The notes below the pieces were generated by a model that did not search any database, was not told the DNA's origin, and saw only the letters and a list, made by a program, of their open reading frames with translations. The translations under genes were made by a program, and so were the position numbers. A stretch of 64,000 nt of DNA from an uncultured Bacilli bacterium (GTDB lineage: Bacteria; Bacillota_I; Bacilli_A; RFN20; CAG-826): the NCBI GenBank assembly GCA_934699525.1, contig CAKUWP010000001.1:132384-196383 (forward strand). The letters are read 5' to 3'. Each line of letters begins with the position of its first letter. Positions within the stretch are counted from its first letter, which is position 1. Below are positions 6,250 to 47,380 of this stretch, in pieces.

Positions 6250-7980
6250 ATGAAAACTGCGATCCCTCTCTTCGCCGATTCCGCCTCTACCCCCATTTGG
6301 ATCCCGATTTTGCTAATGATCGGCGGGTTGGGCGCTTTGTTCGTGGGCATGAACATGCTTCAGGCCTCCACGGAAAAACTCGCTACGGGCGGGCTTAAAA
6401 AGCTCTTTGCCAAAACAGCGAAATCCAAATTCGCCGGGGTGGGCATTGGAACCCTCGCCACGATGATCATGCAATCGAGCGGGGCCACCACCATCATGGT
6501 CGTCGGTTTCGTTAACGCAGGCGTCATGAGTTTGGTCCAAGCCGCCACTTACATCATGGGTGCCAATATCGGCACGACCATCACCGCCCAAATCGTTGCT
6601 TTAGGCGGACTTAATTCTTCCTCCTTCCCCCTTACCGAAATCATCATATCGTTGACGATGGTAGGGGTTTTATTACGCCTTTTCTTCGCCAAAAAATTCC
6701 CCAAAGTTGCTTTAGCAGGCGACATGGTCACCGGGCTAGGGCTTCTTTTCCTTGGCTTAGAGACCATGACAAGCAACATGCAATCGCTCTTTTTAAGTAA
6801 TGAAGGACTGAAAGACGCGTTGACGTCCCTCACCAACCCCTTCTTGCTTCTATTGATCGGCATCGTCTTAACCGCGCTAGCTCAGTCTTCTAGTGCTGTC
6901 ACTTCCATCGTTCTTGCCATGGCGATGGCCGGAGCCGTCGTCGGAGGACATGGCAATGGGGTCCTCTATTTGATTTTAGGTTCCAATATTGGTTCTTGCT
7001 CTACCGCCTTATTGTCTGCGATTGGTTCCACGACCAACGGCAAGCGCGCTTCCATCATCCATTTATTGTTCAACGTCTTCGGCAGTTTGATTTTCTTCAT
7101 CCTTCTTCTTTGCTGGCCAGCTGCGATGGAAAGCACCTTTGAAAGATGGTTCTCGGGGAACCCCGCGATTCAAATCGCCATGTTCCATACCTTCTTCAAC
7201 CTCATCTGCACGATCTTGTTCCTCCCCTTCACCAAAGGTCTTGTCTTTTTGGCAACCAAGATCGTTCCCGAAAAAGGAAAGCATTCCGAAGCCGATTTGC
7301 TCGACCCTCGTTTCTTAACGACCCCCGAACTCGCTTTAACCCAAGCGATTTCTTATTACCACATCATGGCCAAAGCCGCCTTGGACGACTTGAACATCTC
7401 CCTCCAAGCCTTCATGGATAAGAAACAGGAAAAAGAAAAAGTCGATGGCAAGGAAACCCGGGTTTTAAGAATGTCTCGCGACTTAAGTTCCTTCTTAGTC
7501 CAAATCGCCGCGAAGGGGGTCAGCCCTGAATCCCAAAAGCGGATTTCCAGAATGCAATTAGATATCGCCGACATCGTCCGTTTAACCGAAGTCGCGGATA
7601 ACATCACGGGCTATACCCGTCATGAAATCGAGGAGGACCTCCTCTTCTCCCCCATCGTCATGACCGAGCTCCAAGCGATGCAGAAAAACATCAACGCGAT
7701 GTTTGCTCAAACGACTCTCATCGTGGATCACCCCGATTTGGAACGTTTAAAGAAAACGAGGGCCATGGAAGATGCGATCGACGACCAACGTACCCAGATG
7801 GTCCACGGACACTTAAAACGTTTAGAGAACGGGGAATGCAAACCCCAAAGTTCCAACGTTTTCATCAATCTCGTTGGCAACTTGGAACGTTGCGGCGACC
7901 ACTTGAACTTCATTGCCGAGCGTTCCTGCAGCGACCTCTTACCCCAAAATAACGACGACATCATATCGTTACACCCATAA
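6250..7980 (+). CDS. Na+/phosphate cotransporter family protein (NptA/YjbB-like) with a C-terminal PhoU-like domain
   Basis: Duplicated Na/Pi-cotransporter motifs (QSSGATTIMVVGFVNAG..., ANIGTTITAQIVAL...) and a C-terminal helical PhoU-like region. Confidence 0.75.
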   Translation: MKTAIPLFADSASTPIWIPILLMIGGLGALFVGMNMLQASTEKLATGGLKKLFAKTAKSKFAGVGIGTLATMIMQSSGATTIMVVGFVNAGVMSLVQAATYIMGANIGTTITAQIVALGGLNSSSFPLTEIIISLTMVGVLLRLFFAKKFPKVALAGDMVTGLGLLFLGLETMTSNMQSLFLSNEGLKDALTSLTNPFLLLLIGIVLTALAQSSSAVTSIVLAMAMAGAVVGGHGNGVLYLILGSNIGSCSTALLSAIGSTTNGKRASIIHLLFNVFGSLIFFILLLCWPAAMESTFERWFSGNPAIQIAMFHTFFNLICTILFLPFTKGLVFLATKIVPEKGKHSEADLLDPRFLTTPELALTQAISYYHIMAKAALDDLNISLQAFMDKKQEKEKVDGKETRVLRMSRDLSSFLVQIAAKGVSPESQKRISRMQLDIADIVRLTEVADNITGYTRHEIEEDLLFSPIVMTELQAMQKNINAMFAQTTLIVDHPDLERLKKTRAMEDAIDDQRTQMVHGHLKRLENGECKPQSSNVFINLVGNLERCGDHLNFIAERSCSDLLPQNNDDIISLHP

Positions 7981-34283: not shown

Positions 34284-35666
34284 ATGAAACGAAAATACTT
34301 AGCAGATTTAGAACGTTGGCTTACTGCCCCCGACCGTAAGCCTTTAATGGTTTGGGGGGCCCGACAAGTGGGAAAATCTTATTTAATTGAAGAACTATTC
34401 GCGAAAAAATATTTCCCCAATCGCTACCTGCGAATTGACTGCTCAGACGATACGACTTTTGTCGATTACGTTTTCTCTAATAGTAAATTGAACGATGTTC
34501 TGGCTTACATCGAATTGGCCTACGACTTTAAGGCGGACAAAGACCATCTTTTGATCTTTGACGAAGCCCAAGATTGTCTTCCCGTTGTCAAAATGATGAA
34601 GCATTTCTGTGAACAGCACCGGGAAATCCCCGTCATCGTCACAGGATCTTTGGTTCGGTTAAAAATCATGCGCGATGCCCATAAAAGAGGCCAATATGCG
34701 AAAGATACCAAATTTCTTTTCCCTGTAGGAAAAATCAACCAGCTCTACATCTATCCAATGACCTTCGATGAATTCCTGTTAAATGATAACCCCGGACTTT
34801 TGGATTACCTATCCACGCATTTTCAAAAGCAAATCCCCTTGGAACCCGTTATTCATCAAAAGGCTTTAGATGCCCTTCAAAATTATCTTTTTGTTGGAGG
34901 AATGCCGGAAGTCGTAGACACCTACTTGAAGAATAGGGAAAACGGCCCTCTTGGGCTACAAGCCGTCGCGGATAAATTGCAGGAAATTTATGACGACTAT
35001 CTTGCCGATATGGATTTATATCAGGCATCGCCAGAATCCATCATTCGAAGTCGCGCCGTCTATCGCGATATCTATCGCCAATTAAATAAAGAGAATAAGA
35101 ATTTCAAATTTTCTTTGGTTGAAAATAAAGCCAAAGGAAGGGATATGGCAAACCCCATCGCTTGGCTTGTAACCGCCAAAGTCGTCAACCAGTCCTTTTT
35201 ATTAAAAGAAAAGGCCACGACCCCTTTTGTAAAAGAGGAAGATTCCTTAACGCGCCTTTATTTATCCGATATGGGAATGTTCACTTATCAAAGTGGTTTA
35301 AACGTCAAAACGTTCTTAACCAATAAAAACAACGCTCTCTCTGGGATATATTTTGAAAATTATGTCGCCTGCGAATTAAGCGCAAGACGGATCGGTCTAT
35401 TCTATTGGAAAGGAAAAAGGGATTCCGAAATGGAATTCCTTCTCGATATCGACGGATGTCCCACCCCCATTGACGTTAAGAAAGGTCGAGGCAGTCTTAA
35501 TTCATTAAAGGGATTCCGCGCCCACAATAGCAATGGCCTGGCCATCAAGATTTCTAGCAATCAGTATGGTTATGATCAGGAAACCAACCTATTGACTTTA
35601 CCTCTTTATTATTTGTCTTTCTATTTGGATAAATTGCAAAAAGGTGCAATTAATGAAGTCGAATAG
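34284..35666 (+). CDS. COG1373-type AAA+ ATPase (AAA_14 plus DUF4143 architecture)
   Basis: Walker A GARQVGKSY, Walker B LLIFDEAQ, typical 460-aa length; paralog of 43230..44528. Confidence 0.8.
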   Translation: MKRKYLADLERWLTAPDRKPLMVWGARQVGKSYLIEELFAKKYFPNRYLRIDCSDDTTFVDYVFSNSKLNDVLAYIELAYDFKADKDHLLIFDEAQDCLPVVKMMKHFCEQHREIPVIVTGSLVRLKIMRDAHKRGQYAKDTKFLFPVGKINQLYIYPMTFDEFLLNDNPGLLDYLSTHFQKQIPLEPVIHQKALDALQNYLFVGGMPEVVDTYLKNRENGPLGLQAVADKLQEIYDDYLADMDLYQASPESIIRSRAVYRDIYRQLNKENKNFKFSLVENKAKGRDMANPIAWLVTAKVVNQSFLLKEKATTPFVKEEDSLTRLYLSDMGMFTYQSGLNVKTFLTNKNNALSGIYFENYVACELSARRIGLFYWKGKRDSEMEFLLDIDGCPTPIDVKKGRGSLNSLKGFRAHNSNGLAIKISSNQYGYDQETNLLTLPLYYLSFYLDKLQKGAINEVE

Positions 35667-35701
35667 CCTGTAAAAAGGTGCAATTAATGGAAATGAAAAG
35701 G
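35636..35701 (+). repeat. Two further copies of the 33-bp repeat, overlapping the last 10 codons and stop of the ATPase gene
   Basis: 35636-35693 matches 34183-34240 over about 57 bp with two mismatches; the repeat encodes ...KGAINEVE*. Confidence 0.85.
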
Positions 35702-35719
35702 TGGCGGAACCCCGCCACC
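35700..35719. terminator. Bidirectional terminator hairpin between the ATPase and the convergent lipoprotein gene
   Basis: GGTGGCGG-AACC-CCGCCACC, perfect 8-bp GC-rich stem. Confidence 0.55.
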
Positions 35720-35740
35720 AATTATTAGAAAGTGTGCTAA

Positions 35741-37432
35741 TTAGTAAGTGATGCCGCCACCGAGAGCGCTGACAGAAACGGTTTTGGTGAAGGTTTTCGG
35801 ATCTTCGTTTTCAAATTCCAATACCACATGGCCATCCACAAGTTTGAAGGAGGACAATGTAAAGGAACCCCAATCCACTTCGTTTCCTTCTTCGTCCATT
35901 TCGATGAAACTTCCTTCATCGGCCAAAGAGGCCTCGGTCGCGTTGTTCCAGGTAAATTTGTAGTAATAGGCGGTCATCATGCTGTCATAGTATTGAATCG
36001 TACCCGTCTTATCTTCCTTAAAGACAAGGGTCGATGCTGGATAGCCATCATCTTCCCAATTTCCTAGAAGCAACGAGGCGATGCCGCCCGTCGATTTGGC
36101 TTTGACAGTGAAAGTGTTGCTTGCAACGGCTTTGCTACCATCGGCTTTGCTTTGGGTCGAGGTGAAGGTCACCACGATCTTGCTGCCTGCAGCCGCATCT
36201 TCTTTGACTTGGAGGGTATATCCGTCCGCCGCGCTGCCGGTAAGGGTAGCGAATTCCGATCCGGAAGTGATTTCCGCGGTATAAAGATTTTTCGCTGTCG
36301 TGGGAAGGATCGTCGCGGAGAGGGAAACACTAGAACCCGCGACCACTTCTTTGTCTTCTTGGTTGAGGCTGATGCCGTTGATGGGCTTATCTTCCGTCAC
36401 GATGTGGAGGCTTCCACTAACCCCGTGGGCGGAAACGAAGGGGATGTCCACTTCGCCGGCTTTTAGGATCTTGAATTGATTCGTACGCGAATTGAAGAGA
36501 ACGAATTCGTTATCTTCTCCAATCGTTGAGACGATCGCATCTACAAGCGTCGAAGCTTTGGGGTTCTTAGCGGAAGCAAACTTCACCGCGTAGGAATTGT
36601 CGACCAAATAACGGCCGTCTTCGCTGACAAGGGTCGCTTGGATATCCTTGAAGCAGTAATTTTCTTCCAAAACCGCTTCCGGGTTTTCGACCTTGGCTCC
36701 TTCTTTCTTCCATTCGTAGGACGAGGAGGAAGTTGAAGTCGGCGTCGAATCCGCTTCGCTAGCGAAAGTCGAAGTCGTGGTGACGAGTTTTACGATGGCT
36801 TCATCGAGGATCGTCGCTTCGAATTTCTTTTCGACGGTGGCTCCTTCTTCTGTCACTTTTTCGGTCAACGTGAAGACATCGTTTTCATACGCATAAGTTT
36901 TGCCTTCTCCGCCTTTGACAAAGTCATCGAGGACAGCAAGGTTCGCGCTTAAACCATAGGCGTTATTGACCAAAAGAAGAGAGGTTTTTTGATGGAATTC
37001 TTTCTTCGTGGCATCGCTCATCTCAGTTTTAGCAAAATCGACGAGCGCGTCTCCTTCGAAACGGAATTCAAGGAAGGCGTTGTCTTCAATGGAACGGACG
37101 AGGGTGATGTTGCCCGGATTATGCTGAACCACTTGGTTTTTGAAAAAGGAAGCCGAGAAAACGTTTTCCCCTTCTTGGTATGCGGCGGAGGTCGCCAAAG
37201 GCTCATTGGCGATGGTGTTCTTCTTATAGGCTTCGAAATGGGCTTTGAAGCGTTCTTCCGCGGTTAGTCCCACCGTCGAGCTTGTCGAAGCGGAGGAAGA
37301 GGAGGAAACCGAGGTAGCGGAATCGCTAGTAGAAGGATTCGGCTTGGTTTCGCTGGAAGAGGGGTTTCCGCCCGTGCATCCCGCAAGAAGCAAAAGGGAG
37401 GAAAGCAGCAAAAGGGATGGTTTTTTATTCAT
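35741..37432 (-). CDS. Large lipoprotein with a Ser/Thr-rich linker (563 aa), unknown function, paralog family B
   Basis: Lipobox LLLAGCTG followed by an S/T-rich low-complexity region. Confidence 0.65.
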   Translation of the reverse strand: MNKKPSLLLLSSLLLLAGCTGGNPSSSETKPNPSTSDSATSVSSSSSASTSSTVGLTAEERFKAHFEAYKKNTIANEPLATSAAYQEGENVFSASFFKNQVVQHNPGNITLVRSIEDNAFLEFRFEGDALVDFAKTEMSDATKKEFHQKTSLLLVNNAYGLSANLAVLDDFVKGGEGKTYAYENDVFTLTEKVTEEGATVEKKFEATILDEAIVKLVTTTSTFASEADSTPTSTSSSSYEWKKEGAKVENPEAVLEENYCFKDIQATLVSEDGRYLVDNSYAVKFASAKNPKASTLVDAIVSTIGEDNEFVLFNSRTNQFKILKAGEVDIPFVSAHGVSGSLHIVTEDKPINGISLNQEDKEVVAGSSVSLSATILPTTAKNLYTAEITSGSEFATLTGSAADGYTLQVKEDAAAGSKIVVTFTSTQSKADGSKAVASNTFTVKAKSTGGIASLLLGNWEDDGYPASTLVFKEDKTGTIQYYDSMMTAYYYKFTWNNATEASLADEGSFIEMDEEGNEVDWGSFTLSSFKLVDGHVVLEFENEDPKTFTKTVSVSALGGGITY

Positions 37433-37438
37433 TTTTCA

Positions 37439-39388
37439 TTACTCCATCGGCGTTAGGCCATTGATCAAAAGCGTCAAATTCGGAGCGAGGGAAGCGGTGC
37501 CATAATCCTTGAAACTGATTTGATCATAACCCGTCACAGATCCCTGCCCGTATTCAGAGGGGGCCTCGTATCGATAATTGATATTAAGCACGCGCGAATT
37601 TTCGTCAAGTTGCATCGTGAGGGTGCTCGGAATCATATAAGCTCCGCCTTCTCCCATGATGAGGGTATCCGCGACGGAAAGGACTTCCGGCTTCGGGACG
37701 ATTTGGTTTTTGGAATTGATGTTGAAGATAAGCGGGGAGGCCGAGAAACCGATATGGTTATCCAGGGTATCGCCTTCGATGCATTTACCACTGGTGACGG
37801 CGACCAAACGATTTGATGTCGCATCACGACTCACGTTGAAGGGGATGACTTTGCCGTCTTTTTCCACGAACCCGTGGCGTTTGGAAACTTCCGTAGTCAC
37901 AGGGTTATAGACTTCAAAATAGAGAATGTTGTTCGTTAAAGTCATGCGGGTGACGCTAGAAGCAAGGGAGCCATAATCTTCGATCGTAGCCACATAAGAG
38001 GAGCCTTGCTTTAGGCCTTTAAACGCATTCTCGATCTTCTTTTGGTTGGCATCGTCTGCCTTGGCTTCATAAGGGGCAGGGCGAGTGAAATTGGCTTTGG
38101 AATCAAAGGTGGTCTTCACCGTGTAATAGAAATAGGAGGAATCGGAGTCGGAGACCGAGCGATAGAAGGTGGCGTCCATTTCCTGCATGACTCCATTTTC
38201 CACGACGAGATCCAACGTCTTAATCGCCATATCGAAGTTGACGTAGGAATAGGAATAGAAGAATCCTTCCGCGTCTAAGCCCAAATAACGATAGGTGTTG
38301 TCTTTGATTTTACGGAAAGCCTTCGCGGAGAAGATATCCTTCGGCCATTCAAGTTCCTTCCATTGGATGTCTTTGCCCTCTTCGGCGCTATTTTCCACAA
38401 TGACTTCGTTATGGCCGTTGATGCCGATGATTTTGGCTGCGCCATTTTGGTTTTCAAAGAAATGGGCGTAGATCTGTTCGCTGCCCTTTTCTTGGCTGCG
38501 GACGCTAAGCTGCGTGGAAGAGATGCCAACGTCGCTAACGGCATATTCCACCGGTTCTTCATTTCCTTCGTGGAGAGAAATGACGTTATGGGCGGAAAGG
38601 GTTTCGCTTTGGAGGACCTTCGCCGCGTCTTCGCTTAAGGATTCCCCGCTAGCATAGGAGGAACGGAACGCTTCGATGGCTTCGAGTTTGGAGCAATCCA
38701 CGTTCGAGAAAGTGGCCTTGGTGATGACCGCTTCTTTGTAGTCCCCATTGGAATCCATGCTCAGCGCATTGATGGTAAAGGCGAGGTCACCATTTTCCAA
38801 AATGGAGAAGGTCGTATCTTGGATTAAATTATTTTGGGCCAAAGAGATATAGCCAACGGAAGCGCAGAAAACGAGGTTTGCCATTGCGCTGTCCGTATAG
38901 AAAGATCCATCCGCGGCTTCTTTAATCGCACCGCTTTTGAGGTTATAACGGCTTTGAGTTTTGTCCGTGAACAGGGAGAAATAGCTGATTTCGTTGACGG
39001 AGCTCACGTAGGTTCCGCTGCTGGTCTCGGGGAGAAGGATGTCCACGTTATTTTGGTTTAAGTCAAAGCGATAAAGGATGTCCTCATCTTCTTTTTCCAC
39101 GTAGGGGAGAAGCATTCCACCACTTTGAAGGATGGAAGCGTAATAGTAGTCTTTGTTGAACAAGTCAAAGCATTCCACCCCTTCCATCGAATAGGAGAGG
39201 GTGTAATCACCGTGATTGGCCACATAGATCAAATAGTCGTAGATATATTCCGCGTCCTTTTCGCGGTCCTTCATATCCTCGTAGAAATGGGATCCCGAGG
39301 AGGAGGAATCTTGGGGTTTATCGGTGTTGCCACATCCTGCTAGAAGCAAAGGAAGGATGAGGGGAATGATGTATTTAAATTTTTTCAT
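37439..39388 (-). CDS. Large lipoprotein (649 aa), unknown function, paralog family B
   Basis: Lipobox LLLAGCGN; a shared block (DNTYRYLGLDAEGFFYSYSY...VVENGVMQEMDATFY) aligns with the 39407 protein (GNGRYRYIGSNPFSVFYG...VSNGALTNIEVKF). Confidence 0.65.
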   Translation of the reverse strand: MKKFKYIIPLILPLLLAGCGNTDKPQDSSSSGSHFYEDMKDREKDAEYIYDYLIYVANHGDYTLSYSMEGVECFDLFNKDYYYASILQSGGMLLPYVEKEDEDILYRFDLNQNNVDILLPETSSGTYVSSVNEISYFSLFTDKTQSRYNLKSGAIKEAADGSFYTDSAMANLVFCASVGYISLAQNNLIQDTTFSILENGDLAFTINALSMDSNGDYKEAVITKATFSNVDCSKLEAIEAFRSSYASGESLSEDAAKVLQSETLSAHNVISLHEGNEEPVEYAVSDVGISSTQLSVRSQEKGSEQIYAHFFENQNGAAKIIGINGHNEVIVENSAEEGKDIQWKELEWPKDIFSAKAFRKIKDNTYRYLGLDAEGFFYSYSYVNFDMAIKTLDLVVENGVMQEMDATFYRSVSDSDSSYFYYTVKTTFDSKANFTRPAPYEAKADDANQKKIENAFKGLKQGSSYVATIEDYGSLASSVTRMTLTNNILYFEVYNPVTTEVSKRHGFVEKDGKVIPFNVSRDATSNRLVAVTSGKCIEGDTLDNHIGFSASPLIFNINSKNQIVPKPEVLSVADTLIMGEGGAYMIPSTLTMQLDENSRVLNINYRYEAPSEYGQGSVTGYDQISFKDYGTASLAPNLTLLINGLTPME

Positions 39389-39406
39389 AATCGCGTATTC
39401 CTTTCA

Positions 39407-41779
39407 TTAATCCGGGATATAAAGGTCGATGCCGACTTTGGGGTTCTCCCCAATCGTGATACCCAAGGTATAAACCCCGCCTTCGAGGACGTAATAGGTC
39501 TTTTTGCCGTTAGAATCTTTGCCTTCGACAATGCCAGGAATCGCACGGACCTTTTCTTCGAAGCGGCTCATGTAATGGGTCGGGTCCTCGAATTCCACAT
39601 AGGTATCCGGTTGATAGATCTGCACGTGGGTCGGCTTGTTGTTAACGATGTTGGTCGTGATGGCGTACCACCCGTCGAAGAGGGTCGGCTCATAGACGTA
39701 GGGGATGAGTTTGGCCGTAGATTCGCCGAAGAAGGAAAGCAAGGTCGGATAGACGTTTTCTTCCATTTCCCAGGTGGAGGGGGCGGAGAAGGTCGTGAGT
39801 TCTTGCACCTTGGCAGCAAGGTTGGCGTCCACTTCGATTTCATCGTCGCCAAGCCCCACGAATTCGCCGATTTCTTCGCCTTTGGACTGGCCGTTATTGT
39901 ATTCATAACGGTAGCTATAGCTGATTGGTTTCTTCGAGACGTTATTTTTGTAGAAGATATGGAACGTCATCGGACGAACGTTGTCGAGGTGTTGGAAGCC
40001 TTGGATAGAGGAAGTCAAATCATAAATCGGGGTGCGGAGGTTATAGGCAACCTGGGATTCGATGACGGTTTTCTTGAGGACGTCCGGGGAAAGGTTCATG
40101 TTGAGAACATCTTCCAGGGTTTTGTCTTCCGGTTCGGACAAAGCGAACACGTCGTCTTGGCTCGTGTAAAGGAACTGGACGAGTTTGTTCTCCTTGTTCA
40201 TGGCATAGCCGATGCGCTTGGAAGAATATTCCGTCGTAGAGCCGGGTTTCAAAGTCTTTTCTTCACGAAGCAAGTAACGGCTTCCTTCCACATTGGAATA
40301 AGTGAGATAAGCCGCGGAAGAGGGGTCATTTGCATTGTAAAGTTTCAATTGGAACGAGCCTTTGAAATAGGAGAGGGTTTTGGCGATGTCGTCATGAGAA
40401 CCATCTTCTGACGGGGCAAGTGGGGCAGGCATGGCGATCTTTGCGCCTTCTTGGACCGTGATGTGAGCAGCGTACCAATCCTTGGAATAAAAATTCGTCG
40501 GGTCGGTATAGGAATTGAATTTGACTTCGATGTTGGTGAGGGCCCCGTTAGAAACGGAGAAATCGATGAATTCGACATCTTGATTGCCCAAGGATTTAGC
40601 AAGGGTCAAGCCATAGAACACGGAGAAGGGGTTCGAGCCGATATAACGATAACGGCCATTGCCAACCTTCATGAGATTGCTGGCCTTGAGGATATCTTTC
40701 AAATAAACGTAGGAAGACCAATTTTGCCCCGTCGGCTTGCTTTCGACCTTGTTGGAACCGGAGAGATAGACTTCGTGAGAGGCGTCTCCTTGTTTTTGGT
40801 AATAATGGTCATCGTAATAATGGTCATCATGGCCAAAGGTATGGTGAATCTTATCGAGATCCATCGCGACGACGTTGGTTCCTTCGTCATTACCCCATTC
40901 TTCGCTGTCTCGGTGTTCCCAGATTTCCGCGGTGAAGGTATAGGCGTCTTTTTGAAGAGCCGGAAGGGCTGCTTCTTCCACCATATTCACGGAGGAGGGG
41001 TTCTTGAAATAGGCCTCTTCCGCGCTTGCAGAGGCCGAATTCAAATCCGAGAAGGTGCCCTTGGCGTAATCGGTGAAGGTGAAGCCATCGGTGGAACGGA
41101 CGAGAACAAAGGAAAGATCCCCGTTATTTTCTAGGGAAAGCGTCGCGTAAACGAATTGTTCGCTGGCCGCGCGTTCCTTGAGGTTCAAAAGGCAAGCAAG
41201 CGAATAGACGAGGCCAAAATCATTGACCACGTATTCGTCGACGTTCATCAAAAAATCGTCTTTGGTGAAAGTGCCTTTGCCATCTTTTCCAACGTAATCG
41301 GACAAAAGATTGAACGACGATAAATCCGTTAAGGGGGCATAGGCGTCCCCATTTAATTTCGAATCGATGGAAAGCAGTTCTAACGTTTTTCCCGTATTAT
41401 CGAATTCGTAGGAAGAGGTCTTCGACGGATCCTCAAAATTCGGACGGAGGATGTGGCTTAGTCCTTTGCTTTCGAGACGAATATAAGAACCAAAGCAATA
41501 GGTGTCTTCAAACGAGGGCTCATCTTCTTCGTTCGTCAGCGAGACTTTGCTGAGGCGATAGGATTTCGCCTCAACAATCTCATTGAATTTCTTGGCAAGA
41601 ATCTCTTTGTTGATTGGGAGTTTCGGCTGCTCCGAAGAGCCGTTAGAGGTCGAATTAGACTCTGTCCCAGTGGAGGAAGAGGCGGTGTCATTGCTATTTC
41701 CACCAGCCCCGCAAGAAGCAAGTAGCGTCGCCGCGGAAAGCAAGAGGATGGAAGCGCGTGTTAATTTTTTTCTATTCAT
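39407..41779 (-). CDS. Large lipoprotein (790 aa), unknown function, paralog family B
   Basis: Lipobox LLASCGAG plus an S/T/N-rich linker; similarity block with 37439. Confidence 0.65.
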   Translation of the reverse strand: MNRKKLTRASILLLSAATLLASCGAGGNSNDTASSSTGTESNSTSNGSSEQPKLPINKEILAKKFNEIVEAKSYRLSKVSLTNEEDEPSFEDTYCFGSYIRLESKGLSHILRPNFEDPSKTSSYEFDNTGKTLELLSIDSKLNGDAYAPLTDLSSFNLLSDYVGKDGKGTFTKDDFLMNVDEYVVNDFGLVYSLACLLNLKERAASEQFVYATLSLENNGDLSFVLVRSTDGFTFTDYAKGTFSDLNSASASAEEAYFKNPSSVNMVEEAALPALQKDAYTFTAEIWEHRDSEEWGNDEGTNVVAMDLDKIHHTFGHDDHYYDDHYYQKQGDASHEVYLSGSNKVESKPTGQNWSSYVYLKDILKASNLMKVGNGRYRYIGSNPFSVFYGLTLAKSLGNQDVEFIDFSVSNGALTNIEVKFNSYTDPTNFYSKDWYAAHITVQEGAKIAMPAPLAPSEDGSHDDIAKTLSYFKGSFQLKLYNANDPSSAAYLTYSNVEGSRYLLREEKTLKPGSTTEYSSKRIGYAMNKENKLVQFLYTSQDDVFALSEPEDKTLEDVLNMNLSPDVLKKTVIESQVAYNLRTPIYDLTSSIQGFQHLDNVRPMTFHIFYKNNVSKKPISYSYRYEYNNGQSKGEEIGEFVGLGDDEIEVDANLAAKVQELTTFSAPSTWEMEENVYPTLLSFFGESTAKLIPYVYEPTLFDGWYAITTNIVNNKPTHVQIYQPDTYVEFEDPTHYMSRFEEKVRAIPGIVEGKDSNGKKTYYVLEGGVYTLGITIGENPKVGIDLYIPD

Positions 41780-41835
41780 GTTTCATTCCTTTCAAGCCGA
41801 ACTATTGTAGACGTGACTGCTCGTTTGGTCTAGAA

Positions 41836-41851
41836 CTTTCCTTAAGGAAAG
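41836..41851. promoter_or_regulatory. Perfect 16-bp palindrome CTTTCCTTAAGGAAAG upstream of the metallophosphoesterase gene; a third TCCTTAA half-site lies at about 41892 near a TATAAT at 41917
   Basis: Direct inspection of the sequence; candidate operator site. Confidence 0.4.
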
Positions 41852-41955
41852 CGGTTTAAATATCTTGTTTCGCTTCTTTTGTTTCGTCTCCTTCCTTAAA
41901 TCAAGGGATTTATGCCTATAATGAAAAAGTCGAAACACTCAGAGGAAAATCCCCC

Positions 41956-42948
41956 ATGGTGAAAGAAAAAATAAAAGAATCCTGGATTCGCGTGAACCAG
42001 CGGATCGATGAATTTTGTAGAGGAAACGAGGACCGCTCCTTCCGGCTTTTATTTATCACTGACGTTCATATGGGGGCGGAGAACGTTCACCACATCGAAC
42101 AGTTGCAAATGCTTCAAGAGCTTCTCCCCTCCAGCAAAATCGATTTCGTCGTGAATGGGGGAGACATTGGACTAGATGTCGGCGAAAGCAACGAAGAGGC
42201 GAAACGGGTCATCGAATTGACCCAAAAGGCCATGGATTTTGGGAATATCCCCTATTTCTTTTGCAAAGGAAACCACGACATCAAACTAGGCGTATTAGGA
42301 CGAGAAGGTTTAAACCCTTATTTGAATCGTTATTTTCTCGATAAAATCACCCCTGAAAAAGGAAGAATTATAACAAGCGAAACGAACGAAGGTGGATACG
42401 GGTATTATGTAGATAGCAAAACCAACACCCGTTTCTTGTTCCTGAATACTTCGGAAAACCTCCGGGGATATGACGTATCCGGGGAACAACTTGCATTCGT
42501 CATAAACCAATTGGAAACTTGCAAGGAAAAATCCCTCGTCATCTTCAGCCATTTTTGTTTCAACTCCTGTGGGGCGTGGGTTCGTTATCCCAACCCTTTG
42601 AGTCCTAATATGATTAGACTCCGAGACATCGAAAAAGCCTTTGTGAACCGGAAAAAAGGACACACGGGTCCCCTCGATTTTGATTTTAGCCGTTCTCGAA
42701 GCCGCCTTCTTCTTCACCTTTGTGGAGATTCTCATTTTAACAACCAATCTCGAAGCGATAGTTACCTCATCGCCTGCAGGCAAGGGTATGGAGGAATCGA
42801 TCCAGAAGATATCCCGGAAGGGGCTTCTTTCGATTTGTTTGATAAACACGAGCAATGTGATTTCGACCTTTTGGTTATTACCCCAAAGCACGCGAAGCTA
42901 TTCCGTGTTGGGGCTGGGGAGGGGGTTCGCGATATCGAAATTGCCTAA
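41956..42948 (+). CDS. Calcineurin-like metallophosphoesterase (330 aa)
   Basis: Motifs ITDVHMG, NGGDIG, KGNHD; GAGG RBS; TATAAT about 35 nt upstream. Confidence 0.7.
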   Translation: MVKEKIKESWIRVNQRIDEFCRGNEDRSFRLLFITDVHMGAENVHHIEQLQMLQELLPSSKIDFVVNGGDIGLDVGESNEEAKRVIELTQKAMDFGNIPYFFCKGNHDIKLGVLGREGLNPYLNRYFLDKITPEKGRIITSETNEGGYGYYVDSKTNTRFLFLNTSENLRGYDVSGEQLAFVINQLETCKEKSLVIFSHFCFNSCGAWVRYPNPLSPNMIRLRDIEKAFVNRKKGHTGPLDFDFSRSRSRLLLHLCGDSHFNNQSRSDSYLIACRQGYGGIDPEDIPEGASFDLFDKHEQCDFDLLVITPKHAKLFRVGAGEGVRDIEIA

Positions 42949-43108
42949 GGGTTTCCCCTCTTTTTTCCGTGAAGTCCGAAAAAGTGTAATTTCACTATCG
43001 TTTTTTGCATTTTTCTTGACTTCATTTTGCCCGATTTTCACACTTTTTCGAAGTTAACTGAAAGGAAAGAGAAAAACATCCGATGTATTGCCAACATTTA
43101 AGTTAAGT

Positions 43109-43219
43109 ACATTTTTGGTTGGTTCTAACCGAATTTGTACTTAGATATTGCTTTCAGCATTAGAGAAATTAAAATAGTTATATACAATTTTGGTTGGTTC
43201 TAACCGAATTTGTACCTAG
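43109..43219 (+). repeat. Two 36-bp direct repeats (ACAWTTTTGGTTGGTTCTAACCGAATTTGTACYTAG) 75 bp apart, the second ending at the RBS of the ATPase gene
   Basis: Copies at about 43109-43144 and 43184-43219; each contains the inverted element GGTT-CT-AACC. Confidence 0.8.
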
Positions 43220-43229
43220 GAGATTTGAA

Positions 43230-44528
43230 ATGGTGTTTGCCAGAAAACGTTACTTGGATCAATTAACCGCCTCAATCGGCAATGGAATGATCAAGGTCAT
43301 CACGGGGCCAAGGCGTTCGGGAAAATCTTACTTGTTGTTTACAATTTTTCGAGATTGGTTACTTCATTCCGGCGTTCAAGAAGATCATATTTTGTGCCTG
43401 AAATTAGACCAGCAAAGCAATGCTCGTTATCGGAACCTTGACGAATTTGTTTCTTTTTTCAAATCTCAACGCAAAACCGACGGAAAATCCGCCTATTTTC
43501 TCATTGATGAAATTCAATTGGTCGCATCCAAAGAGAACCCTTGGGTTCAAGGTCAATTTCTAACCTTTTACGACGCCCTGAACGAATTTCTGGGTTGGGA
43601 CAATATAGAAGTCTTCGTTACGGGCAGCAATTCCCACATGCTCTCTAGCGATATCGCAACCGAATTTCGCGGACGCGATTGGCAAATTCCGATGTATCCA
43701 TTGTCCTATTCCGAAATTCGAGAACAAACCGATTCGAACATCAACGACTTCACGTTATGGGACCTTTACTGGAAATACGGGGGATTGCCCGCCTGCGTTT
43801 TGGAATCCGACGAATCGAAAAAGCAGCAATATCTTAAGCAAATTTTTTCCACCACTTATTTAAAGGATATTGTGGAACGGTACCATCTTCGCGACGACAT
43901 TATTTTAGAGAACCTCGTTGCTTATTTAGCTTCTTCCGTTGGTTCCGTCCTCAATCCCACCAACATCTCCAACACCTTTAAAAGCAAAATGCACATAACA
44001 GTTGCCCCGGCCACCATTCGTCGCTACATCACCTATCTTAATGACGCCTTTGTCATTTCCGACGCTCAACGGTTTGATCTTAAAGGAAAAGCCATTATCA
44101 ACGGGTCTAGCAAATATTTCTTTAACGACATGGGGCTTCGAAACGCCGCCGCCCATTTTTTAGGTCAAGACCAAGAACCCCACTTCATGGAAAACATCAT
44201 CTATAACGAATTGGTTCTTCGTGGATTTATGGTTCAGGTTGGATCCATTACAAGCACGGAAAACGTTAAGGGGAAACCAACAAAGGTAACGAGAGAGGTA
44301 GACTTCGTTGCAACCAAGAACGGAAGGAAATTCTATATTCAATCGGCTTTCCTTATCGATAATCCCGCCAAGCTTCAGCAAGAAAAAGAATCTTTCCGAA
44401 AAATCGACGATTCCTTCACTCGCGTTATTATCAGCAAATTCACTTCCGGCGCATCCTACGATGAAGACGGCGTGTTGCGCCTCGGCTTGTTCGATTTCTT
44501 GCTCAACAAGTCCAACATCATCGATTGA
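43230..44528 (+). CDS. COG1373-type AAA+ ATPase (AAA_14 plus DUF4143), second paralog
   Basis: Start refined to MVFARKRYLDQL (AGGAG RBS); Walker A GPRRSGKSY, Walker B YFLIDEIQ. Confidence 0.8.
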   Translation: MVFARKRYLDQLTASIGNGMIKVITGPRRSGKSYLLFTIFRDWLLHSGVQEDHILCLKLDQQSNARYRNLDEFVSFFKSQRKTDGKSAYFLIDEIQLVASKENPWVQGQFLTFYDALNEFLGWDNIEVFVTGSNSHMLSSDIATEFRGRDWQIPMYPLSYSEIREQTDSNINDFTLWDLYWKYGGLPACVLESDESKKQQYLKQIFSTTYLKDIVERYHLRDDIILENLVAYLASSVGSVLNPTNISNTFKSKMHITVAPATIRRYITYLNDAFVISDAQRFDLKGKAIINGSSKYFFNDMGLRNAAAHFLGQDQEPHFMENIIYNELVLRGFMVQVGSITSTENVKGKPTKVTREVDFVATKNGRKFYIQSAFLIDNPAKLQQEKESFRKIDDSFTRVIISKFTSGASYDEDGVLRLGLFDFLLNKSNIID

Positions 44529-44533
44529 TTAAA

Positions 44534-44566
44534 AGTTCCATTTTTGGAACTATTTCGTCGCATTTT
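44534..44566 (+). terminator. Hairpin terminator after the second ATPase gene
   Basis: AGTTCCA-TTTTT-TGGAACT followed by ATTTCGTCGCATTTT. Confidence 0.5.
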
Positions 44567-44623
44567 AGAATAATTTCTAAAGTTTTATTCCCACTTTTGG
44601 AACTTTTACCATACAATATAGCC

Positions 44624-45283
44624 ATGAAAAAAAGAATAACTCTATTCCATGGCTCTGATCACGTCATCGATTCCCCCGTTTTCGGGGGAGGATCCCCAAA
44701 AAACGATTATGGGTTTGGATTTTATTGCACCCTGGAAGAGAAAGCCGCCAAAGTTTGGGCCAACCGAAACGGAGGGCCGGGATACGTCAATCAATACGAG
44801 ATCGACGTTTCTTCGCTGCAAATCTTAGATTTAACCGCCCCCTCTTTTGATGCTATGTACTGGATTTCCCTTCTCCTTCAGCACCGCAGTTTGGACGATA
44901 CCGATCGAAGAAAATACAAAACTCTTTTGGAAGACCTCTTTCGAACTTATCCCGTTTCCATTGATGGCGTCGATCTCATCATCGGGTATCGTGCCGATGA
45001 CCGATATTTTCGTTATTGCAAAGATTTTTTGTCCAGCCAATTGGATTACGATTCCCTAACAAAAGCATTAAAGCTAGGAAAATTAGGGATTCAATACGTT
45101 CTGCTTTCGCCAAAAGCCTTCCAAAACATTCATTTTATACGCGCTGAAAAAATTGGAGAGGATTATCTCCGCTCCTATTCTCAACTCATGGAAAAAACTA
45201 ACGACGAATATCAGATAATCATGGAGGGCGCCGATCAAAGAAACGGCCTCTTCATCCGGGACATGTTATATGGAAAACGTTAA
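44624..45283 (+). CDS. DUF3990-like protein (about 220 aa)
   Basis: Start at MKKRITLFHGSDHVIDSPVFGGGSPKNDYGFGFYCT (DUF3990-type LYHGS...DYG.GFYC N-terminus). TACAAT lies 6 nt upstream of the ATG, so the transcript is possibly leaderless. The ORF overlaps the next ORF by 14 nt. Confidence 0.55.
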   Translation: MKKRITLFHGSDHVIDSPVFGGGSPKNDYGFGFYCTLEEKAAKVWANRNGGPGYVNQYEIDVSSLQILDLTAPSFDAMYWISLLLQHRSLDDTDRRKYKTLLEDLFRTYPVSIDGVDLIIGYRADDRYFRYCKDFLSSQLDYDSLTKALKLGKLGIQYVLLSPKAFQNIHFIRAEKIGEDYLRSYSQLMEKTNDEYQIIMEGADQRNGLFIRDMLYGKR

Positions 45284-45905
45284 ACTGCTAACTTCCGAAA
45301 TCAAAGAACGTCTCGCTTCTTTTTTCGAAATGTGCTTATCCCAAGAAGCCATTCCCATTGATTTGCTAGAAGAAAAGCTTGCTTGGGCCGAGCCTTTTCA
45401 ACTTTTGGAAAGAGGCGATGCCACCAGTTTATTAACTGGCACGGTCAGCGATTTATTTCATCGCGTGTTTCAAACTCACGAAACGCCAAATCAATATCTG
45501 ACTGATTCTCGTTTTTATTGGGCAGGACAAATATACGCCACCATCTTTTTGGAAGAAGGGGCGTCCCTTTATCGCATTTCTCTATTGCTCCCCTTGCGTG
45601 AAATGAAAGATCTTTTTCTCCCTTATCACGAGATGGACGACACTCAAATCGTGCAATTGTATCGAAAGCGTGAAAAGGAAAAAAGCGTTTTGGAAGTCCT
45701 CAAAAAGAAAAGCGGACTTTCCTATGTAGAAATGGTAAAAAAGACAGAAATTCCAAAAACCAATCTTTTCCGATTAAAAGACAACAAGAATCTCCAACGC
45801 ATCGGATTAGACGAAGCGAATCAATTAAGCCAAATCCTTCATTGTCCCATCACGGTTTTTCTCAGCCAAGTGCTTTTATCATCATTTTCGAAATATTCTC
45901 GATAA
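45270..45905 (+). CDS. HTH-containing protein, possibly DUF3791-like plus an XRE-type HTH; translationally coupled partner of the DUF3990 gene
   Basis: C-terminal HTH (LSYVEMVKKTEIPKTNLFRLKDNKNLQRIGLDEANQLSQIL); a middle segment (LFLPYHEMDDTQIVQLY) resembles the DUF3791 core. Confidence 0.5.
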   Translation: MENVKLLTSEIKERLASFFEMCLSQEAIPIDLLEEKLAWAEPFQLLERGDATSLLTGTVSDLFHRVFQTHETPNQYLTDSRFYWAGQIYATIFLEEGASLYRISLLLPLREMKDLFLPYHEMDDTQIVQLYRKREKEKSVLEVLKKKSGLSYVEMVKKTEIPKTNLFRLKDNKNLQRIGLDEANQLSQILHCPITVFLSQVLLSSFSKYSR

Positions 45906-45997
45906 TAAGGACAAATTCGAAATTTAAGGCGCGAAAAGATTCAATCCATTTTGATTAAAAAGACGCGTTTAACAGCGACAAAAAGATATGCTCGCTA

Positions 45998-47380
45998 TTA
46001 CGAAGCGCGATCCGCCTCGGAAGAAAGAACCGATACCTCTTTTTTCCATTTCTTACGAATCCAAAAATATCGGATCAAGGGATAAAGAGTCCCCGCGACA
46101 AAACTAATCGGCCACGCAAACCACAAAATTAAAACGTTATGCCAAGCATAGGCCGCGGCAAAGGCAATGCCGGCTTTCGCCGCCAGCTGCATGAACCCAG
46201 CAATAAGGGAGTCCGCGGCCTTTCCCATGCCCTTCAAAACATATTGATAGATATTCATGATGCCGCAGAGAATGCAAGGCACCCCTGCAATCAAAAGGTA
46301 ACGGTAAGCTTCGTGAACCACTTCCTCCGCCGGTTCTTTTAAAAACCACGGAATCATGTAAATCCCAGCAAAGCCCAGCACAAGCCCAATCACCGCGGAA
46401 AACCCTAGGTTTAAAATGTGAGATGCTTTCACGCCGGGTTCAATTCGGTCGATCGTCCCCGCCCCAACGTTTTGAGAAGTATATACACTGAGAGAACTTC
46501 CTACGTTCTCCACCGGAATCAACGCAAACGCAGCAATTCGGCTTCCTACCGTATAGGAAGAAATGACGTTTTCTCCAAACTGATTGACGCATCCCTGGAC
46601 CAAAACGTTGCCCAGGTTATTGATGCCAGCTTGCAAGGCGAAGGGGATGGCAAGCCGAGAAATATCCCCCATTAAACGTATGTTCAGTTTGGCATCCTCT
46701 TTATGAATCCGCATTTGCGGATATTTGATATAGAGAAGCACCAAGGCAAAAATAACGGACAACCCTTGAGCGATCGCCGTTGCAATCGCCGTCCCTTCTA
46801 CCCCCATTTTAAAAACCAAAACAAACAGGAAATCGAGGCCAATGTTCGAAATGGCAGAAACCAGCAAACACCATAATGCGCTTAAGGAATCTCCGATGCT
46901 TCGAAAAGCGTTATAAAGCAAATAATAGCTAAGCGGAAATAACATCGTCACGAAGCTCACCTGCAGATATTTGGTGGCTTCCGCCAATATGTTTTCCGGG
47001 GTTTGCATCCAAATTAAGATTTGCCTCGACAAAAAGAAGCCGGACAAGGCAATAATCGCGCTTAAAAACAAAGCAAAATAGAACGAATTGGCAAAAATAT
47101 GGCGAACCTGCCCGTATTCCTTTTTTCCAAAGCTTTGGGCCATCAAGACCCCGCAGCCAATATTGACCCCGATGACCAAAGAAACAATGAGAAGAATGAT
47201 GGGCATCGTCACTCCAATGGCGTCTAAAGCTTGGTTGCCCAAGACCTTACCCACGATAATCGAGTCCGTTAAAGAATAGACTTGAGAAAGGAAGTTCGAT
47301 AACAAGGCTGGCAAAGTAAAAGCGAGCAGCAGCTTTAACGGATGCCCTTTGGTCATATCAATTTGAGCTTTGTTTTTCAT
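45998..47380 (-). CDS. MATE-family efflux transporter
   Basis: 12-TM protein; N-terminus LKLLLAFTLPALLSNFLSQVYSLTDSIIVGKVLG is typical of MATE. Confidence 0.8.
   Translation of the reverse strand: MKNKAQIDMTKGHPLKLLLAFTLPALLSNFLSQVYSLTDSIIVGKVLGNQALDAIGVTMPIILLIVSLVIGVNIGCGVLMAQSFGKKEYGQVRHIFANSFYFALFLSAIIALSGFFLSRQILIWMQTPENILAEATKYLQVSFVTMLFPLSYYLLYNAFRSIGDSLSALWCLLVSAISNIGLDFLFVLVFKMGVEGTAIATAIAQGLSVIFALVLLYIKYPQMRIHKEDAKLNIRLMGDISRLAIPFALQAGINNLGNVLVQGCVNQFGENVISSYTVGSRIAAFALIPVENVGSSLSVYTSQNVGAGTIDRIEPGVKASHILNLGFSAVIGLVLGFAGIYMIPWFLKEPAEEVVHEAYRYLLIAGVPCILCGIMNIYQYVLKGMGKAADSLIAGFMQLAAKAGIAFAAAYAWHNVLILWFAWPISFVAGTLYPLIRYFWIRKKWKKEVSVLSSEADRAS

Follow-up and report, generated by a model that had tools for sequence, protein, structure and literature searches.

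A four-gene interval in the genome of an uncultured Bacilli bacterium: probably three independent units, one of them an ATPase gene preceded by repeated palindromic sites

Do four neighbouring genes that share one strand and a stretch of low G+C work together as a single defence system? The question is raised by the interval 41836-45905 of a 64 000-nt stretch of DNA from an uncultured Bacilli bacterium (GenBank assembly GCA_934699525.1, contig CAKUWP010000001.1, positions 132,384 to 196,383); this whole stretch is called the window below. The interval consists of four open reading frames (ORFs), all on the plus strand: a metallophosphoesterase gene (MPE), a gene for an AAA_14-DUF4143 ATPase of the COG1373 type, and an overlapping pair made of a DUF3990 gene and orf4, whose product carries a helix-turn-helix (HTH) domain. 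A preliminary description of the window had seen an accessory island here, with a phosphoesterase plus AAA+ ATPase combination reminiscent of nuclease-ATPase defence modules.

We found genes of known kinds: the phosphoesterase is a generic one, the ATPase is of PDC-S01 type, and the DUF3990/HTH pair resembles PDC-M42. The region should not be annotated as a new four-gene defence system; quite likely it is made of three functionally independent transcription units, which stand side by side in a variable low-G+C stretch. The idea of an accessory or defence island holds in so far as three of the four genes are members of accessory, defence-candidate or toxin-antitoxin-type families; it does not extend to one system of four genes. 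The most interesting lead is the architecture of repeated sites at PDC-S01-type ATPase genes.

Independence of the units

Unit A is the MPE gene (41956-42948, plus strand, 330 aa), unit B the ATPase gene (43230-44528, plus strand, 432 aa), and unit C comprises the DUF3990 gene (44624-45283, plus strand, 219 aa) and orf4 (45270-45905, plus strand, 211 aa). The four ORFs and the overlap within the pair, 14 nt long, were thus present as first described. Gaps of 281 nt (MPE-ATPase) and 95 nt (ATPase-DUF3990) lie between the units, each gap with separate promoter-like sites and a repeat set of its own. Two of the genes had been listed with upstream TTG starts. The ATPase ORF was listed from 43194 (444 aa); its real start is the ATG at 43230, with AGGAG at 43217-43221, and gene callers on other contigs also give 432 aa. 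The DUF3990 ORF was listed from 44525; its real start is the ATG at 44624.

We compared the window with related loci and contigs, designated by L-numbers (L005, L012, L016 and so on). The gene arrangement is kept in 13 same-species contexts from human-gut metagenomes. Loss of one unit was seen to leave the others in place: in L008 a frameshift after about residue 133 disrupts the MPE, the other genes being intact; in L012 a 937-bp deletion, with microhomology at its junction, has taken away most of the ATPase gene and one repeat copy (a single copy is kept), the MPE and the pair being intact and the pair 98% identical. The DUF3990/orf4 pair was intact in 10 of 10 same-species contexts.

Beyond the species the units part company. 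Orthologues of the MPE (61-66% identical) occur in three unrelated neighbourhoods (with GH3, MCRA and TetR genes; with an ABC and large-ORF cluster followed by GH130; near Fic and DUF234-ATPase genes), in none of which an ATPase or DUF3990 gene is a neighbour. Conversely, none of 80 metagenomic loci (577 kb) around ATPases of the window's subfamily contained an MPE homologue, and a DUF3990 gene was found in two of them, both divergent (L041, L043). The MPE is also absent from all eight lineages in which the DUF3990/orf4 pair was traced. The co-inheritance of phosphoesterase and COG1373 genes, which the preliminary description had proposed to examine, was therefore not observed: no co-location was detected outside the species in the three MPE orthologue contexts and the 80 ATPase loci, and the supposed phosphoesterase-ATPase module is not supported.

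One could still imagine the four genes as one system, with the MPE as nuclease and the AAA+ protein as its ATPase, in the manner of Mre11/SbcD-ATPase complexes, and with the DUF3990/HTH pair as effector or regulator. The genes are contiguous, on the same strand and of low G+C between minus-strand clusters; their arrangement is kept in all same-species contigs; and the MPE, which adjoins the ATPase gene, has weak similarity to SbcD/Mre11 (1e-4 to 0.04). However, this similarity is confined to generic metal-binding motifs, and purple acid phosphatases match better. In the known modules of this kind (SbcCD, Mre11-Rad50 and derived defence systems) the partner is an SMC/Rad50/ABC-type ATPase, whereas the window's ATPase is AAA+/STAND/Orc-like and is set off by the 281-nt gap with its own promoter and sites. 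With separate promoters and cis elements for each unit, with an MPE never linked to the other genes outside this species, and with the L008 frameshift and the L012 deletion each leaving the remaining genes intact, we regard a four-gene system as highly improbable.

The MPE itself looks like an ordinary member of its superfamily. The Pfam Metallophos match (4e-10; 40.9 bits against a cut-off of 21.5) is accompanied by all five calcineurin-like motifs (DxH, GD, GNH(D/E), H, GxH), and the metal-binding positions D36-x-H38, G69-D70, G105-N106-H107-D108, H199 and G257-D258-S259-H260 are invariant or nearly so among 47 homologues. Among solved structures, those closest to it in sequence belong to purple acid phosphatases (3e-6) and Mre11 (1e-4), again with generic motifs only in common; PADLOC matches were marginal and confined to the N-terminus. 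We therefore take the MPE, as far as its sequence can tell, to be a stand-alone cytoplasmic phosphoesterase of housekeeping type and a bystander at the locus.

Upstream of the MPE, in the 176-nt divergent intergenic region that it shares with a minus-strand gene for a 790-aa lipoprotein, lie the perfect 16-bp palindrome CTTTCCTTAAGGAAAG (41836-41851) and an additional TCCTTAA at 41893, both as reported earlier. The palindrome is the sole perfect one of 16 bp in 64 kb. Block shuffles of the sequence gave a mean of 0.92 such palindromes, with at least one in 62% of shuffles; its frequency is thus at chance level, and we dropped it as a statistically significant feature. It is unchanged in same-species contigs and was not found upstream of MPE orthologues in other species (L020, L022, L024). 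It may serve the divergent promoters as an operator.

The ATPase gene and its repeated sites

The ATPase has Pfam matches to AAA_14 (6e-25) and DUF4143 (5e-14). A PADLOC scan, as suggested in the preliminary description, assigned it to PDC-S01 (model PDLC04787, E 7.6e-104, residues 13-439 of the 444-residue ORF against profile positions 6-409 of 412); four more PDC-S01 models match it as well. The same scan assigned the DUF3990 protein to PDC-M42A, that is, to a separate candidate. PDC-S01 is a single-gene candidate derived by ‘guilt by embedding’ (bioRxiv 10.1101/2024.01.29.577857); it is among the commonest prokaryotic defence calls and is unvalidated (PMC12988326), and it is very abundant in gut and rumen genomes (PMC13356809). 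The architecture of the family combines an AAA+ part with a PD-(D/E)XK-family part (PMC3424549; PMC12988326).

An AlphaFold model of the window's ATPase (pLDDT 88.3) has an AAA+ region (residues 1-215), a winged helix (∼224-298) and a PD-(D/E)XK-like alpha/beta domain (∼316-410). Foldseek related the model to the archaeal AAA+ protein SSO1545 (2fna, 1e-9), to Apaf-1/CED-4 and to Orc1/Cdc6 with origin DNA, and its C-terminal part to the nuclease domains of Can2, Cdn1 and VC1899; PDB sequence searches with the ATPase subfamily gave no match. With PDC-S01 the protein thus shares the full-length profile match, the AAA_14 plus DUF4143 architecture and the single-gene organization. The difference is in the putative nuclease motif: where (D/E)xK is expected, the window's subfamily has D358...Q371-S-A, invariant in 27 sequences, whereas other AAA_14-DUF4143 genes carry E/D-x-K at the Q371-S-A position. 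Because D...Q-S-A replaces the canonical motif, nuclease activity of this subfamily is uncertain; K381 and E385, both invariant, might stand in for the canonical residues.

Members of the subfamily (39-44% identical) were also seen on 75 predicted viral contigs of IMG/VR (L114-L188), many of them near-identical copies of one element. The family therefore resides not only on chromosomes but also on prophages or phage-like elements.

Two copies of a repeat precede the ATPase gene. Site S1 (43101-43144, plus strand) is an imperfect 34-nt palindrome with the core GGTTCTAACC; site S2 (43176-43219, plus strand) lies 75 nt downstream of it and runs up to the ribosome-binding site, which leaves 10 nt to the ATG. 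These are the direct repeats first noted as two copies of 36 bp; they are real, and by our measurement they are 44 nt long and 91% identical, with an exact 26-nt core (43115-43140 and 43190-43215) for which 0 matches are expected by chance. Promoter-like elements, TAGAGA-16-TACAAT, are situated between S1 and S2; S2 begins at the -10-like TACAAT (43183-43188) and covers the leader. No site was found downstream of the window's ATPase gene (43230-44528).

The repeats are a hallmark of the family. In all five AAA_14-DUF4143 genes that we inspected, tandem repeats reach up to the start codon or stop just short of it, with a period of 33-34 nt and two to four copies in four of the five, and of 75 nt in the window's ATPase. 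With a repeat pair defined as at least 20 nt long, and with control ORFs taken from the same loci, pairs were found for the window's subfamily at 20 of 75 loci from metagenomes and at 12 of 50 non-redundant loci from IMG/VR, versus 12 of 314 control ORFs (Fisher 1.8e-8). Nearly always the copies are 73-88 nt apart and the second one ends 1-20 nt before the ATG; an equivalent of the S1 element is present in homologous loci. Each repeat holds a palindrome of 12-16 bp, laid out as an A-tract, TGCGnA...TnCGCA-like arms and A4T3, and the letters vary among homologues. In the papers that we searched, no description of a palindromic site architecture around PDC-S01-type genes was found.

The S sites are most likely an operator pair for a dimeric DNA-binding protein. 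We infer that this protein is the ATPase itself, acting through its winged helix and so regulating its own gene, because the ATPase, with its winged helix, is the only gene that these loci share. In the mechanism that we propose for unit B, the two palindrome-bearing sites would bracket the promoter, the second one lying in the 5′ leader, and would be bound by the dimeric protein; as repeated sites they could also serve as substrates for precise gain or loss of the ATPase gene. An alternative role for the S sites as intrinsic terminators was rejected, because most homologues have short stems and there is no U-run behind them. An association analysis of palindrome type against winged-helix residues was dropped, since shared ancestry would confound it.

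In its working principle, an AAA+ protein with a winged helix encoded behind repeated, cognate-looking sites around an A+T-rich spacer resembles Orc1/Cdc6 with origin recognition boxes and iteron-binding plasmid Rep proteins, and the 33-nt periodic repeats at L016, L017, L025 and the first ATPase paralogue of the window look similar to iterons. The likeness goes no further: the window's ATPase has an extra PD-(D/E)XK-like domain and occurs in many copies per genome; a role in replication is unsupported, and binding is a prediction.

The first paralogue, ATP1 (34284-35666, plus strand, 460 aa), lies outside the interval. Its repeats differ from those of the second ATPase, as had been stated in the preliminary description: there are five copies of AAAAAGGTGCAATTAATG, of which three lie upstream at intervals of 33-34 nt (34186, 34220, 34253) and two overlap or directly follow the 3′ end of the gene (35638, 35672). 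In the same-species contig L005 (368-424) ATP1 is absent and exactly two copies of AAAAAGGTGCAATTAATG are kept; the alleles differ by a 1452-bp indel bounded by a 56-bp direct repeat. A third site 17-30 nt past the ATPase stop codon, in an S-S-gene-S arrangement, was seen in L055, L117-L122, L132 and L186. In L075 and L077 the ATPase gene is bracketed by direct duplications of 55-75 bp that include the terminator of the upstream gene, and in L057 by a duplication of at least 30 bp. Repeats shared between the flanks were observed at 8 of 73 ATPase loci versus 5 of 192 control genes (p = 0.009). When we looked up the identical ATP1 protein in other contexts, we found it in one genomic context only (7 contigs). 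In L012 (1-1520) about 1 kb separates a Na/Pi cotransporter gene (window 6250-7980) from what is left of the 3′ part of ATP1 (window 35543-35791). This implies that ∼27 kb of glycoside-hydrolase (GH) genes (window ∼8-35.5 kb) are missing from this contig or rearranged in it, the junction being marked by the ATPase remnant.

One could speculate that PDC-S01/COG1373 genes are autonomous, selfish single-gene cassettes (S-S-gene-S) rather than immune genes, the protein of each recognizing the sites both for self-regulation and for insertion and excision of its own gene; the repeats of the window's ATPase unit would then be recombination or iteron-like sites instead of operators. Such a view is consistent with the sites on both flanks of ATP1 (three upstream, two downstream) and of the genes with a third site listed above, with the L005 allele that lacks ATP1 exactly between the repeats, and with the flank duplications in L075, L077 and L057 and the excess of flank-shared repeats over controls. 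The frequency of homologues on predicted viral contigs (the 75 loci) would also fit, as would the presence of homologues among horizontally shared gut genes (PMC10782964) and the lack of phage protection by a tested PDC-S01 gene (bioRxiv 10.1101/2024.09.26.614923). On the other hand, there is no recombinase or transposase inside the unit, the single context of the identical ATP1 protein gives no sign of recent transposition, and deletion between direct repeats accounts equally well for the L005 allele. Moreover, in most loci the sites are only upstream, the window's second ATPase has no downstream site, and its subfamily has no canonical nuclease motif. Mainly because of the single context of ATP1 and the missing recombinase, we rate both the general claim for the family and its application to the window's ATPase as unlikely. 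The flanking sites could also do no more than favour precise deletion of the ATPase gene. If the cassette idea were true, it would explain precise presence/absence alleles, long flank duplications and repeated landing beside modules such as the DUF3990 pair, and many PDC-S01 calls would represent selfish elements, or a new site-addressed system, rather than phage-attacking nucleases.

The DUF3990/orf4 pair

The first gene of unit C encodes a protein with a strong Pfam match to DUF3990 (4.6e-35) and a match to PADLOC model PDC-M42A (PDLC04641, E 3.1e-38, profile positions 2-180 of 215), the M13 and M10 models being weaker. DUF3990 belongs to the ADP-ribosyltransferase (ART) clan of Pfam (PMC7955679) and has been described at the C-terminus of an Rhs protein (type VI-associated) with a predicted immunity gene downstream (PMC4524185). 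Invariant residues include H9 in Y/F-H-G-S and Y34 in G-F-G-F-Y-C-T. A PDB sequence search gave no solved relative of DUF3990, and the clade was not found in IMG/VR.

The product of orf4 consists of an all-alpha N-terminal domain (residues 1-135), with invariant W84 and H120 and a Y119-H-E-M motif, and of a C-terminal Xre-type HTH (∼140-195; weak match to HTH_26, Cro/C1-type, at residues 141-194); the pLDDT of the model is 92.3. Structural matches (C.BclI, CylR2, HipB, CapH) were limited to the HTH part, and none was found for the N-terminal domain, which thus appears from the model to be novel. The family is large: a profile search (E<=1e-3) collected ∼460 clusters at 50% identity. Among 50 sampled members, 24 match HTH_3/HTH_26 and three match PDC-M42B (best 2.7e-10). 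Two orf4-family genes were seen apart from DUF3990. One is a solo member of 207 aa in L111 (1082-1705; E 1e-52 to the family profile), 2.3 kb upstream of the DUF3990/orf4 pair of that locus; the other, in L109, is a 300-aa form (P0066) with a C-terminal extension and no DUF3990 neighbour.

Pairing of the two genes is strict. Relatives of orf4 were traced in eight close clusters and one 25%-identical relative (P0069); the related-locus search used a narrow orf4 alignment and found four genomes. In 8 of 8 lineages (the window, L014, L016, L017, L025, L027, L028 and L111) the DUF3990 gene comes first and the 14-nt overlap is the same, at identities from 25% to 67%. In L016 a type I restriction-modification system adjoins the pair; the L014 locus contains ArdC, helicase and methylase genes.

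The control region of the pair lies in the 95-nt gap after the ATPase gene. The distal predicted operator (44535-44550) is a perfect palindrome, GTTCCA-TTTT-TGGAAC, 7 nt past the ATPase stop codon; the proximal one, ATTCCCACTTTTGGAAC (44587-44603), is degenerate and overlaps the -35 element of the pair's promoter. The -10 box TACAAT (44612-44617, plus strand) is 6 nt before the ATG at 44624, and a leaderless transcript is therefore implied; the promoter is apparently leaderless. Both palindromes, ∼53 nt apart, together with TGnTATGAT-N6-ATG, are kept in the orthologous pairs of L016, L017, L025 and L027, which show GTTyCA-N4-TGGTAC at the position of the proximal operator. In L028, where orf4 is 38% identical, there are two copies of a different palindrome, TATCACnAATGATA, and the start region reads TGGTATAAT-N6-ATG; in L111 the sequence ACACAAA-N8-TTTGTGT covers the -10 box. 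Operators that change along with the HTH protein are what one classically sees in autoregulated operons of type II toxin-antitoxin systems.

We therefore propose that the pair is a toxin-antitoxin-type module, in which the DUF3990 protein is a predicted ART-fold toxin and orf4 a predicted antitoxin and autorepressor. Toxicity and neutralization are suggested by membership in the ART clan and by the use of DUF3990 as an Rhs C-terminal domain beside a predicted immunity gene. The N-terminal domain of orf4 would neutralize the toxin, and its Xre HTH would bind the two GTTCCA-N4-TGGAAC operators over the promoter of the leaderless operon. If the labile partner were lost, for example when an infection shuts off host expression, the toxin would be freed and growth arrest would follow, with a possible anti-phage effect.

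Since the DUF3990 protein matches PDC-M42A and three of the 50 sampled orf4-family members match PDC-M42B, the pair appears to be a divergent relative of the candidate PDC-M42 (a DUF3990-like A plus an HTH-containing B; PDC-M10 and PDC-M13 are related), with which it shares the organization in two adjacent co-oriented genes. It differs in that the gene B model is not matched by the window's orf4, which has no PADLOC match at E<=0.1; for this reason PADLOC probably would not call the pair here. PDC-M42 itself is an unvalidated candidate.

Several characterized systems offer comparisons. With type II toxin-antitoxin systems the pair shares adjacent, co-oriented and conserved genes, an HTH partner and palindromes in the promoter, binding being a prediction. 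In DarTG the gene of an ART-fold toxin comes first and overlaps the downstream antitoxin gene, and the outcome is growth arrest or abortive infection. The window's pair has the same toxin-first order and the overlap with the downstream gene. Unlike DarG, however, orf4 has no macrodomain and is all-alpha with an Xre HTH, so that neutralization would proceed by binding and repression rather than by enzymatic reversal; DUF3990 is also a different Pfam family from DarT. In the RES-Xre (ParST-type) systems, too, the toxin comes from the Pfam ART clan, to which RES belongs together with DUF3990 (PMC7955679), and its partner is an Xre-type HTH antitoxin, autoregulation of the operon by the antitoxin being probable. 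Compared with them the gene order in the window is reversed, toxin first, the HTH is C-terminal behind a 135-aa domain without structural match, and the toxin family is another one.

Alternatively, the pair could be an enzyme, for example one of nucleotide or NAD-related modification, under the control of an Xre-type repressor, with no toxin-antitoxin relation. The orf4-family genes without DUF3990 (in L109 and as a second copy in L111) agree with this, as do the ambiguous third catalytic residue (see below) and the fact that toxicity of DUF3990 is only predicted. Yet a regulated enzyme would hardly account for strict pairing with a translationally coupled 14-nt overlap over the range from 25% to 67% identity, or for an ART-clan domain used as Rhs C-terminal domain beside a predicted immunity gene (PMC4524185). 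A toxin-antitoxin-type module is also favoured by the neighbours of the pair in L016 and L014, which include restriction-modification genes and others of mobile or defence type, and by the matches of both partners' families to PADLOC candidate models built from genes embedded in defence systems; we consider the enzyme alternative quite unlikely.

The ATPase gene and the pair might also be joined in a three-gene system, the AAA+ ATPase being a rapidly diversifying sensor that controls the DUF3990/HTH effector module. In 3 of 8 lineages an AAA_14-DUF4143 gene is directly beside the pair (upstream in the window and in L017, downstream in L016), divergent cases are present in L041 and L043, L016 and probably L025 have ATPase_2/DUF234 AAA+ genes upstream of the pair, and the distance from the end of the ATPase ORF to the distal operator is 7-30 nt in the window and L017. 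The ATPases are, however, not orthologous: those beside the pair in other lineages share ∼19-25% identity with the ATPases of the window, versus 60-67% identity for the pair, and they differ in subfamily, site type, position and orientation. Pairs in L014, L027, L028 and L111 have no adjacent ATPase gene, L025 has only a weak ATPase-like match ∼1 kb upstream, and 78 of the 80 ATPase homologues have no DUF3990 neighbour. Furthermore, in L012 the pair is intact (98% identical) despite the loss of the ATPase, and PADLOC treats the two as separate candidates. To us the adjacency looks like repeated independent juxtaposition in a variable hotspot or defence island, not like an operon, and we give a three-gene system little credence.

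The two ATPase ORFs whose ends come so close (7-30 nt) to the pair's distal operator, in the window (44526-44550) and in L017 (7241-7300), are only 19% identical. The format of this operator, an A-tract plus a 16-bp palindrome, is like that of the ATPase sites, and its position is where the third ATPase site lies in other loci.

Some results weigh against the picture of three independent units with the functions outlined above. Some AAA+ gene is beside the pair more often than the ∼3% per side of a rough background (p ∼0.006 by a rough binomial estimate), and ATPase_2/DUF234 genes count in the same direction; a loose functional or insertional link between the pair and an AAA+ gene may thus exist. 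For unit B, the subfamily has no canonical ExK of PD-(D/E)XK nucleases, a repeat pair by the strict definition is present in 24-27% of homologues only, and one PDC-S01 representative gave no protection in E. coli against T4, T5 and T7 (bioRxiv 10.1101/2024.09.26.614923), which leaves a defence role of this unit unproven. For unit C, the third residue of the ART catalytic triad (H-Y-E or R-S-E) is ambiguous: it could be E59, which L028 replaces by R, or Q157, which does not vary among the five closest sequences and is present in L028 as well; and orf4-family genes also occur without DUF3990.

Setting of the locus and significance

Genes for lipoproteins, on the minus strand, flank the interval upstream, as the preliminary description had it. 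On the other side the GH operon said to border the interval is not its immediate neighbour: a MATE efflux gene (45998-47380, minus strand) sits between orf4 and the GH2 gene. The G+C content is 0.36-0.44 over most of 42750-46000, compared with 0.47-0.51 in the lipoprotein genes. There are no tRNA genes in the window, hence no tRNA-linked integration site. An Rfam scan of 41700-46100 at a permissive threshold gave no credible match, and NCBIfam and PHROGs scans of the four proteins gave weak generic matches for the MPE and nothing else.

We also considered a 14-nt inverted match between S (43130-43143) and 45906-45919 as possible terminal inverted repeats of an element made of the ATPase gene and the pair; it was rejected as a chance match, ∼1.5 such matches being expected in 4.3 kb by our estimate.

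Two large lipoprotein genes (649 and 790 aa, lipobox LAGC and LASC; window 37439-41779, minus strand) and a 563-aa ORF (35741-37432) have no Pfam match. The lengths of ORFs in the lipoprotein region differ between strains (785 vs 790 aa, 550-575 aa, and a split form in L010).

Gut, rumen and archaeal surveys place PDC-S01 among their most frequent ‘defence systems’, and yet it is unvalidated. The site architecture described here gives a handle on its function: palindromic sites spaced by ∼75 bp, or iteron-like arrays of 33 bp, directly precede the start codon, a further copy sometimes follows the stop, and there are alleles of precise gene loss. The DUF3990/HTH pair, with its predicted operator, its apparently leaderless promoter and an antitoxin domain without structural relative, offers a small, clean model for an uncharacterized toxin of the ART clan.

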